In this document: in pieces, positions 5,153-7,546 of the stretch
How the letters are laid out: each line of letters begins with the position of its first letter
Position numbering within the stretch: position 1 is the stretch's first letter
IMG/VR virus record: IMGVR_UViG_2534681759_000012
Span: 1-43,160 of that record
Reading direction: 5' to 3' (one strand)
Origin: a virus
Taxonomy: Duplodnaviria > Heunggongvirae > Uroviricota > Caudoviricetes
DNA: 43,160 nt
Notes under the pieces: generated by a model
The model's database searches: none
What the model was told of the DNA's origin: nothing
Seen by the model: the letters and a program-made list of their open reading frames with translations, nothing else
Position numbers and translations under genes: made by a program

Positions 5153-7546
5153 CTATTCTGACAACGCATCAGACTTAGCCCCCTGCGTCAGAGCGTTAAT
5201 TGCCTTTTGTGCCTGCTGCATTGCTTTCTCAAAGTCTGTTGATCCGCGTGGGGTGTTTGCCATTCGGAGCATTGCATTTCTGAATGGTTCGCTCTCATAG
5301 GCGCGAGTAAGAAGTCCGTAGCTTACTGCTGCGCCAGTTGTCGCCGGGTTCATTGCCGTCCCATACCCGATAATGAACGGGATGGTTTGCTGCCCTGTTG
5401 GTGTTGTTACTGCCGCTTTTGCAGCCTGCTGCGTGGATTGCAGGTAATTTTTCAATCCTTTCAGATAAGCAGCGTCCTGCCCCTTAAATGTGATGCCAGT
5501 CTGGTTTTGCAGGATGTTAAGCTGTCGAAGGAACTGGTCAGGTGAACCCCCTGATTTCTCCATCGCCTTTCCAATGATGCCATTGCGCATTTGCGCCCTG
5601 CCAACACGACCAACTGAGTTATACAGCGTCTTAATTTCCGATTTGTTCTTGCTGAATAGCATGTTGTTGACAACTTCCGGCGTCAGGTCGCCTTTCATGA
5701 GAACATTCTTCAGCCTGGTATTCTTTAGTTTCGCCGCTTCGTCAGCGTAGACGGCATTGGCCTGCTGATATTTACGGAGAGTATCGTTACCAAGATTCTG
5801 ACCAATGGCACCATTGATATCGTCTGTCATCGCCTTGTAAACGCGCTGAATGGCAGCATCGGAACGGTTTGGTAACACTGGTCGTTCCCCCTTCACGTCC
5901 ATTCTGAACTGGCTGCGCAGATCGCTTAATTGCTTCAAATCAAGATTTACCGGACCATCAGGGCCAGCATTGCGAACAAGCTCATCACGATATGACTGAA
6001 GTTTTGAAATAGTCTCGTTATCAGCGACCTTACCAAGCTTCTGCAGATTAGATATCTCGGTATCAATCTGCTGAATTGCTCGCGCAGGCAGGATATTGAC
6101 TCCCGCCATTGCATTCTGAACCTGCTCAAGACGGTTCCCTGCAGCGCGACGAATTCCTGATGTTTTCGCTTTAAGGCTGTCAATAATAACCGCTGGATCA
6201 TACTCGCCGAATTTATCAGCAAATCTCTGCACCAACTGGCTTCTCGCTTCCTGTTGCGTTGCTCTCATTCCGCTTGTGCCAGCCAGAGGGATATTTTCTG
6301 CTGTAGTCTGCGCCATTTTTCCGACGCGGGAAGTGGGTTGTAACAGGTCTGTGGTGTGCAGAGGAACTCCTTCACGCTCTGCAAATCTGATAGCCTGCTG
6401 CGCTTCTGGCGTGATAGCACCACGAACGCCACGATAAGCAGCACCTAATCCACGTCCAGCTGCGTTAATAGCGCCGCCAGCCAGCACACCAACGCCTAAA
6501 TCGGTGGCGAGTGCTTCCGCATCATCTTTCGCACTATTTGCAGCAAGTGATCCAACTGCGTTTTCTGCTAGAAGGCGAGTTGCCCCATGAGCAATTCGAC
6601 CAGCAAGTGTTGGTGCCTGTGCTGCCGCTCTCTCAACGCCAGCAGGAGTGAGATAAGGCAATGCCTCAGAAAATACCCTGCCCTCTGTCGTTTGTGGAGT
6701 CAGCTCGCCTTGCTGAAGGCCAAAGTCCCGCTCTAATCCCTGCGTTGTTACTCGTGGTGCTGGTTGATATGTACCATCGCCAATGCCGAGTTTACCGCCA
6801 GCCCAAGCCGCCGCGCTTGTTACAGCATCAGTGAGTTCAGCAGGTATGTTCGCTACGTTGATTCCTGCCTGTAGTAAGCCGCGCCAGGTTTCAGCAAGTC
6901 CATTACCAAGGTCAGACATTATTCCGCCTTGCTGCTGAACAGGTTTCGGTGCGACAGAACTTACGGGTTGAGGTGGCTGCTGACTGGCTGCCTGCTGCTC
7001 AATCTGAGCAAATGGATTATTTGGGTCTGACTGCACGCCTGATGCCGATACTTGTTCGGATGACTGTGCTTCCAGTTGTGCAAACGGGTTGTTAGGGTCT
7101 TGCTGAGGATGTACCTTTGCGGAGGTGGCGCGCTGTTCGACTGTTGAGTCTGTCACCGGGTCACCCGCCCATTGAGCAAAGCGATCATCTACGTAACCGC
7201 GGCCTTCAGGTCCTGGCGTATATTCACCACGCTTTGCCTTCATAACGTTGCCGGGACCGTCGTGATAAGCCTGAAGAGCGTCACGCCAGTTACCAAACTG
7301 CTGGTACATCTTTGCCAGATAGCGCGCGCCAGCGTCAGCCTGATATTCGGGGTTTTGCATTTGCTCATCGGTATAACCCATATCACGCCATGTCCCAGGC
7401 ATGACCTGAGTCAATCCTACAGCCCCGGCGGAGCTTACTGCGGCAGGGTTGTAAGAAGACTCCTTGGCACCAAGTGCAGTCATCAACCCTTCTGGCACAC
7501 CGTAACGTGCGCCAGCCTGCTCTAACAAATCACGGTAATTAGCCAT
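5153..7546 (-). CDS. Ejection (internal virion) protein, gp16-position, with N-terminal lytic transglycosylase (SLT) domain
   Basis: 797 aa; N-terminus has SLT-like motifs (AKESS, GLTQVMP, AYHDGPG); occupies the gp16 slot after the gp7/gp20 homologues; Gln/Ala-rich with an internal DPNNPFAQ repeat. Confidence 0.7.
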   Translation of the reverse strand: MANYRDLLEQAGARYGVPEGLMTALGAKESSYNPAAVSSAGAVGLTQVMPGTWRDMGYTDEQMQNPEYQADAGARYLAKMYQQFGNWRDALQAYHDGPGNVMKAKRGEYTPGPEGRGYVDDRFAQWAGDPVTDSTVEQRATSAKVHPQQDPNNPFAQLEAQSSEQVSASGVQSDPNNPFAQIEQQAASQQPPQPVSSVAPKPVQQQGGIMSDLGNGLAETWRGLLQAGINVANIPAELTDAVTSAAAWAGGKLGIGDGTYQPAPRVTTQGLERDFGLQQGELTPQTTEGRVFSEALPYLTPAGVERAAAQAPTLAGRIAHGATRLLAENAVGSLAANSAKDDAEALATDLGVGVLAGGAINAAGRGLGAAYRGVRGAITPEAQQAIRFAEREGVPLHTTDLLQPTSRVGKMAQTTAENIPLAGTSGMRATQQEARSQLVQRFADKFGEYDPAVIIDSLKAKTSGIRRAAGNRLEQVQNAMAGVNILPARAIQQIDTEISNLQKLGKVADNETISKLQSYRDELVRNAGPDGPVNLDLKQLSDLRSQFRMDVKGERPVLPNRSDAAIQRVYKAMTDDINGAIGQNLGNDTLRKYQQANAVYADEAAKLKNTRLKNVLMKGDLTPEVVNNMLFSKNKSEIKTLYNSVGRVGRAQMRNGIIGKAMEKSGGSPDQFLRQLNILQNQTGITFKGQDAAYLKGLKNYLQSTQQAAKAAVTTPTGQQTIPFIIGYGTAMNPATTGAAVSYGLLTRAYESEPFRNAMLRMANTPRGSTDFEKAMQQAQKAINALTQGAKSDALSE

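Follow-up and report, generated by a model that had tools for sequence, protein, structure and literature searches.

Does a P22-like prophage encode a cell-wall-cutting enzyme as part of a protein that it would eject together with its DNA? The question is raised by one gene in a stretch of 43,160 nucleotides of Caudoviricetes DNA (IMG/VR virus record IMGVR_UViG_2534681759_000012, positions 1 to 43,160), which is referred to here as the window. The gene is a single open reading frame (ORF) at 5153..7546 on the minus strand; according to the ORF list and translation, its ATG, at 7546, immediately follows the TAA that ends the upstream gene, its own stop codon lies at 5153-5155 and its product has 797 residues. 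An earlier note on this DNA, made from the sequence without database searches, had read it as an ejection protein with an SLT-like domain at its N terminus; the location given there was right, and the strand, which it left unstated, is the minus strand. We find that the gene is the third ejection ('DNA transfer') gene of the prophage, at the position of P22 gene 16 and Sf6 gene 13. Its product has three parts: an SLT head, a flexible linker and a P22-type ejection body. It is most probably a virion-packaged ejection protein, the tethered N-terminal lytic transglycosylase of which opens peptidoglycan locally during genome delivery.

An N-terminal lytic transglycosylase domain

The head (residues 1–127; 7166..7546, minus strand) is assigned to the SLT family, or family 1 lytic transglycosylases, through Pfam, an AlphaFold2 model and Foldseek. 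The profile search that the earlier note had proposed gives a significant match of PF01464 to residues 7–110 (window 7217-7528), with an E value of 2e-25 and a score of 89 bits (cut-off 21.3), and the match covers profile positions 2–110 of 117. A search against the sequences of the PDB returns Escherichia coli Slt70 as the best match (E 5e-11); T7 gp16 chains are also matched. The expression 'peptidoglycan hydrolase', used in the earlier note, needs correction: SLT enzymes are lytic transglycosylases and, strictly speaking, not hydrolases.

The earlier note had let its proposal depend on the catalytic glutamate, and this residue is present. Glu29 (codon at 7460..7462, minus strand), in the motif K-E-S-S, aligns with the catalytic Glu478 of Slt70 and with Glu37 of T7 gp16 and is the predicted catalytic acid. 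When the protein is aligned with 76 diverse SLT homologues (77 sequences in all), the columns of E29, S30, A42, G44, Q47, Y94 and G97 are invariant. The active-site signature is complete (E29-S30, G44-L-T-Q47 and A93-Y-H-D-G97), with a histidine at position 95 instead of the usual asparagine. Cysteine is absent from the entire 797-residue protein and from five relatives.

An AlphaFold2 model built on the 77-sequence alignment reaches block means of the predicted local distance difference test (pLDDT) of 88–98 over residues 1–110 and 93–98 over residues 11–100, and becomes weak past about residue 130. The modelled head has a lysozyme-like all-α fold. Foldseek places Slt70 (1qte) at the top of its PDB matches, at 33% identity, and also returns LtgA, MltE, MltC and MltF, all with probability 1.0. 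Slt70 is thus the best match in both sequence and fold and shares the ES, GLxQ and AYxxG motifs; however, it is a periplasmic enzyme of the cell itself and carries a large superhelical domain at its N terminus, whereas here the catalytic domain stands alone in that position and is fused to a phage ejection protein.

A third ejection protein of mosaic origin

According to Pfam, the genes on the minus strand run in the order gp10-like (PF11134), Sf6-type needle, gp14-like (DUF2824), gp7-like, gp20-like, the 797-residue gene and tailspike; the ejection cluster thus lies between head-completion genes and the tailspike, and Sf6, Sf101 and P22 have the same gene order. The ejection trio begins with a gp7-like protein of 226 residues (8894..9574, minus strand; PF25688 P22_gp7, E 8e-92) and continues with a gp20-like protein of 445 residues (7547..8884, minus strand; PF16928, Inj_translocase, E 1e-68). 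On the other side lies a tailspike with a P22 head-binding domain (2949-4988, minus strand; Pfam). The gp16 position that the earlier note had given to the gene is borne out by these neighbours and by the body of the protein, which is 35% identical to P22 gp16 over 481 residues (E 4e-76). Moreover, the PHROGs family phrog_770 ('DNA transfer protein') matches residues 108–797 with an E value of 5e-237. Judged by sequence, the protein therefore belongs to the P22 gp16 / Sf6 gp13 family as well as to the SLT family.

The body (residues 207–797; 5156..6928, minus strand) is of the Sf6 gp13 type, with about 95% nucleotide identity to Sf6 gene 13. It opens with a motif common to all gp16 types, φM..G...RGL, in which M210, G214, R222, G223 and L224 are invariant. 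An AGGCGG lies 4 nucleotides upstream of Met210; an internal start, as well as Asp-Pro self-cleavage, was considered, and we make no claim for either. A phmmer search of the PDB with the body returns nothing, T7 gp16 chains included, and the body has no solved structure. Classical transmembrane helices are not found in it (maximum Kyte-Doolittle mean over 19 residues, 1.36).

With 797 residues, the protein is 188 residues longer than P22 gp16 (609 residues), in line with the surplus of about 190 estimated earlier, and 132 residues longer than Sf6 gp13 (665 residues). Alignment with both proteins, another check that had been suggested, shows that the extra part is a 206-residue unit of head and linker, which stands in place of the first ~75 residues of Sf6 gp13 or the first ~50 residues of P22 gp16. 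These two proteins share with the 797-residue protein the gene position, the homologous body and the φM..G...RGL motif, but lack the SLT domain.

The boundary of this unit coincides with a joint in the DNA. Over nucleotides 1–618 of the gene (residues 1–206) there are only 6 mismatches to Shigella phage Sf101, and divergence is complete from nucleotide 619; from nucleotide 676 on, identity to Sf6 gene 13 is about 95%, and residues 207–242 form a more diverged patch. In BLASTN comparisons, the block shared with Sf101 extends from 9443 down to 6929 and comprises gp7, gp20 and the head, whereas that shared with Sf6 extends from 6934 down to 4648 and comprises the body and the N terminus of the tailspike. 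The two blocks overlap in CAGCAA only (6929..6934, minus strand; Gln205-Gln206), which holds the last bases in common with Sf101 and marks the beginning of the Sf6 gene 13 homology. The allele would have arisen by recombination at this microhomology between an Sf101-like block (gp20 and head) and an Sf6-like block (body and tailspike N terminus).

Occurrence and annotation

The exact protein is RefSeq WP_032335821.1, a 'lytic transglycosylase domain-containing protein' recorded from several independent assemblies, and its cluster at 90% identity has 1,295 members. In a survey of 5,426 complete E. coli genomes, we detected the head in 70, the full 797-residue form in 52, the Sf6-type body in 348 and a gp7-like gene in ~530; the head is thus present in ~13% of the genomes with a detectable P22-like gp7 gene (70/~530). 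Phage IME10 has an intact 797-residue ORF too, and so do 28 of the 62 IMG/VR viral contigs examined. Cultured phages that carry the head include IME10, Sf101, Huey, Dewey, APC_JM3.2 and phiKp_30. The IME10 protein is 98.5% identical overall, and its gene carries no annotated feature.

In the 62 IMG/VR loci, we find the head in fusion with bodies of at least five P22-like types: the Sf6 type (797 residues), an L/BTP1-like type (790–815 residues), the Sf101 type (911–922 residues) and two types with P22-like proximal parts (875 and 836 residues). Head and linker are 99–100% identical to those of the window in Sf101 gp13 (AII27837, 'transglycosylase', 911 residues), in the IME10 ORF and in the homologues from Huey, Dewey and APC_JM3.2, and the same type of gp20 C-terminal half lies upstream in all of these phages. 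However, Sf101 has a different body, P22-like in its proximal segment and divergent over its distal ~560 residues, and Huey, Dewey and APC_JM3.2 also have a body other than that of the window, as judged by nucleotide matches.

An additional and more distant type, that of Sortsne and Kc237 (1007–1050 residues), carries an SLT head too. Here the head is 52–64% identical, an N-x-F-x-Q-φ motif follows the SLT domain and the gene position is the same; the differences are a much longer Gly/Ala-rich linker, another body type and an N-terminal extension of ~30 residues. In Kosakonia phage Kc237 (MW258710; locus L004, 5902-9036) and Escherichia phage Sortsne (NC_048178; locus L005, 5902-8949), the third ejection gene is one continuous ORF with an SLT domain, of 1044 and 1015 residues, respectively; the deposited annotations of both divide it into small, probably spurious ORFs and a shortened gene. 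The opposite case is seen in Salmonella phage VSe13 (QOI68465; locus L070, 1222-3219) and in protein P0139 (665 residues): these are Sf6-type proteins of 665 residues with an SLT-less N terminus (MAKAWKDVIASPQYQ...) that nevertheless bear the name 'lytic transglycosylase domain-containing protein', apparently carried over from SLT-headed relatives. Annotation errors are thus exposed in both directions, as unannotated or split genes and as SLT-less proteins named transglycosylases.

PHROGs already contains families for the SLT-headed protein. In the searchable literature, which does not include a 2011 comparative paper on the ejection proteins (E-proteins) of P22-like phages, we found table-level annotation only and no experimental or comparative discussion. 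According to a 2022 review, P22-like phages do not have this domain, and a 2017 review of virion-associated lysins has gp4 as its sole entry for P22 (PMC5380687). P22 gp4, the tail adaptor, is a case of virion-borne peptidoglycan activity reported in a P22-like phage (PMC5380687), but it is another protein, located at the neck, and has no SLT domain. The finding is correct, already recorded in databases at the level of sequence and annotation, and under-reported in papers. New here are the fusion of the head to at least five body types and its occurrence, in every case found, together with a single type of gp20 C-terminal half.

A repeated motif in the linker

Head and body are joined by a Q/P/S/A-rich linker (residues 128–206; 6929..7165, minus strand), predicted to be flexible from its composition and from a pLDDT of ~55–72 in the AlphaFold2 model. 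It is about 80 residues long, acidic and free of cysteine, and its sequence varies among relatives apart from islands of a motif. This motif, DPNNPFAQ, occurs exactly twice in the protein, at residues 150–157 (7076..7099) and, 24 residues later, at residues 174–181 (7004..7027), both on the minus strand and both within the interval 7001..7099 where the repeat had originally been noticed. When the protein is shuffled with its composition preserved, an exact repeat of 8 residues arises in 1 of 2000 shuffles. The DNA of the two copies differs at 6 of 24 bases, all of them synonymous, and Tandem Repeats Finder reports nothing at the motif region, that is, there is no tandem repeat at the DNA level. 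The motif is therefore kept at the protein level and does not reflect a recent DNA duplication.

Two copies of DP(N/D/S)NPFAQ(L/I/V)E, 24 residues apart, recur in all P22-like SLT-head proteins examined, even where head identity falls to 74%. The loci contain 9 different nucleotide forms of copy 1 and 6 of copy 2, and apart from those at the third residue the changes are all synonymous. Copy 1 aligns with NVFDQF in the homologues from Sortsne and Kc237, a position that reads N(V/I/F)FDQF in Sortsne-type proteins, and a further copy of the motif is found at the extreme N terminus of these proteins, within the extension mentioned above (MANVFDQF). In the AlphaFold2 model, a short helix of low confidence begins at each motif.

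A phmmer search with the linker alone (residues 128–206) against 1.84 billion representative proteins returned only its own family and four unrelated repetitive proteins; the motif is therefore without detectable relatives outside SLT-headed ejection proteins. No convincing copy was seen in the gp7-, gp20- and gp14-like proteins and the needle of the window, the needle alone having a loose pattern, NIFSQ; by eye, the motif is also absent from the N termini of P22 gp7 and gp20, Sf6 gp12 and Sf101 gp12. A longer linker is found in an 886-residue variant from another viral contig (IMG/VR UViG_3300013354_000001; locus L053, 4001-6661), which carries ~95 additional residues immediately behind the second motif (...GNIDIHNRPVVKNPDGSISTVRSMS...GKHLGIFDNPDDATAYAERLH...); Pfam, PHROGs and PDB searches return no match to this insert.

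Linkage of the head with the C-terminal half of gp20

The linkage data single out the part of the genome next to the head, at about 7547-8300 (minus strand), which encodes the C-terminal part of gp20. In all P22-like carriers of the head, the C-terminal half of gp20 is of one type, 77–99% identical to that of the window, and its divergence tracks that of the head; the N-terminal half of gp20 in the same carriers ranges from 45 to 98% identity. Among the E. coli genomes surveyed, 69 have this gp20 C-terminal type (67 at full length), which adjoins the head wherever the coordinates of both are listed, and full-length copies of the head and of the gp20 C-terminal type number 67 each. At an identity of at least 95%, the type is found in nine phage records only, all of which have the head too. 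In viral contigs, it is followed by the SLT-head gene in 47 of 47 cases. The C-terminal half of Sf6 gp20 is only 43% identical to that of the window, and that of P22 is not detectably similar. Thus, the C-terminal half of gp20 (7547-8300) and the head with its linker (6929-7546) are inherited as one block, whereas the flanks, that is, the N-terminal half of gp20 and the gp16 body, recombine freely.

One tentative explanation, which we hold to be possible rather than likely, is that head, linker and gp20 C-terminal half are one co-adapted unit, in which the two DPxNPFAQ(L/I)E peptides would serve as a 'tape' that docks onto the cognate gp20 tube. It is attractive because gp16-N of T7 and its 'molecular tape' bind the C-terminal domain of gp15 (PMC8954989). 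At least as likely is a neutral alternative, namely that the block is inherited whole since it offers no internal homology for recombination with other alleles. If co-adaptation were true, the head would be a natural topology marker, placing the N terminus of P22-type gp16 at the periplasmic tube. The strict linkage between head and gp20 C-terminal half gives a testable lead on the assembly of the P22-type conduit.

Comparison with T7 gp16

One of the closest known proteins is T7 gp16 (internal virion protein D), which also has an SLT domain at the extreme N terminus of the third and largest ejection protein. BLASTP aligns the two with an E value of 2e-10, Glu37 falling on Glu29, and the similarity runs through an EGRxY segment; in both proteins, an extended non-globular segment follows the SLT domain. 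Glu37 is the catalytic residue of T7 gp16, and gp16-N is a transglycosylase located on the periplasmic tunnel that is needed only with highly cross-linked peptidoglycan (PMC8954989). However, the heads are only 28% identical over 130 residues, and T7 gp16 has 1318 residues as compared with 797 here. The bodies have no detectable similarity (BLASTP against full-length T7 gp16, best E 2.2), and a homologue of the ~1150-residue C-terminal body of T7 gp16 was not found. Nor do the E-proteins of P22-like phages form the kind of ordered core stack that those of T7 do (PMC8954989). Since the bodies are unrelated, the 797-residue protein would work like T7 gp16-N yet stand outside the T7 gp16 family. 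We also considered a special kinship between the head and T7 gp16-N and rejected it, the cellular Slt70 being at least as close (33% versus 28% identity).

A probable role in genome delivery

Once ejected, the E-proteins of P22 build a conduit across the periplasm (PMC10883804). Both the presence of the 797-residue protein in virions and its enzymatic activity are inferred. If it resembles P22 gp16 and T7 gp16, the protein would be packaged in the capsid and, after adsorption, expelled through the tail together with gp7 and gp20. The head would then refold in the periplasm and cut glycan strands locally, so that the gp20/gp16 conduit could cross the sacculus, and the body would engage the inner membrane. 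Since Sf6 and P22 can do without the head during infection, the enzyme is probably an accessory that helps when conditions in the wall are demanding.

The prophage has a further wall enzyme, from which the head had been held to be separate, and the two are indeed encoded apart. A holin-endolysin-Rz cassette spans 22800-24017, with the holin at 23694-24017, the endolysin at 23234-23710 (minus strand) and Rz at 22800-23237. The endolysin is essentially lambda R (PDB 1am7, E 1e-104) and has no Pfam or NCBIfam match at an E value of 0.001. Lambda R is itself a lytic transglycosylase of unrelated fold; the endolysin and the SLT head thus give the prophage a pair of lytic transglycosylases with unrelated folds, presumably one for exit and one for entry.

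Several observations weigh against local opening of peptidoglycan by the head. P22 and Sf6 lack the domain, which is therefore not essential to the mechanism of delivery; with a head no closer to T7 gp16-N than to Slt70, the architecture common to T7 gp16 and the 797-residue protein may be convergent; and a search of the literature found no enzymatic, proteomic or genetic data on this protein or its close relatives. In addition, Gln47 is replaced by glycine in the head variants of IMG/VR loci L035, L036 and L053, in which the Glu-Ser pair is kept, and catalytic constraint could be relaxed in these relatives. The same substitution would also fit a head that is mainly a peptidoglycan-binding anchor or scaffold and positions the conduit in the sacculus with little or no cutting. 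Normal infection by phages without the head also points that way, as does the constant pairing of head and linker with a single type of gp20 C-terminal half, which would suit a structural function. We nevertheless consider an anchor improbable: P22-like variants strictly preserve Glu29-Ser30 and the rest of the signature, even at 74% head identity, whereas an inert domain would be expected to lose its catalytic glutamate.

Less probable still is an action of the head at another stage, for instance in lysis or release or in attack on neighbouring cells. Phage muralytic domains can generally serve entry or exit, and nothing more specific speaks for such a role in this case; the head shares its reading frame with an ejection body, within the virion-assembly operon, lysis is already provided for by the complete cassette described above, and the same N-terminal position serves entry in T7 gp16 (PMC8954989). 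That the long ORF is an artefact, either a false fusion of two genes through faulty assembly or sequencing or the decaying gene of a prophage, has a next to negligible chance of being true. An IS21 insertion elsewhere in the prophage and shortened versions of the gene in some contigs (569, 576, 343, 293 and 151 residues) would be in keeping with it, but the same architecture and length recur in the 52 complete genomes, in cultured IME10 and in many viral contigs, the exact protein comes from several independent assemblies, and substitutions in the motif are almost all synonymous, as under purifying selection; the recurrence data have effectively refuted it already. A tethered lytic transglycosylase for genome delivery thus remains the reading that we favour. 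It leaves the known picture of ejection proteins unchanged and adds to it a well-documented member with testable details. As the same body exists with the head (this prophage and IME10) and without it (Sf6), the protein also provides a natural comparison for asking what short-tailed phages owe, in infection, to a wall enzyme carried in the virion.

Features of the surrounding prophage

The window is a P22-like prophage. A tyrosine integrase is encoded at one end (1-1152) and a host gene for a LacY-family sugar permease at the far end (41913-43160), which shows that the prophage is integrated, with one host flank in view; we take the permease to resemble the sucrose permease CscB. Between integrase and tailspike lies a 441-residue ORF (1567-2892, plus strand), a site that usually holds lysogenic-conversion genes in P22-like prophages. 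The ORF matches only phrog_14022, a family of unknown function, and has no Pfam match; PADLOC models of defence systems detect nothing in five accessory ORFs of the prophage, this one included.

An element of the IS21 family is inserted between the packaging genes and the lysis cassette (20469-22270) and consists of istA (20469-21491; rve integrase core) and istB (21488-22270; PF01695). It may have inactivated the prophage. Finally, the prophage encodes a DnaB-like replicative helicase of 826 residues (28848-31328, minus strand), the N- and C-terminal DnaB domains of which are split by an insert of ~350 residues. The insert has a weak LAGLIDADG match at residues 439–485, and PHROG terminase families and a DNA primase match residues ~216–583; an intein that contains a homing endonuclease is its probable identity.

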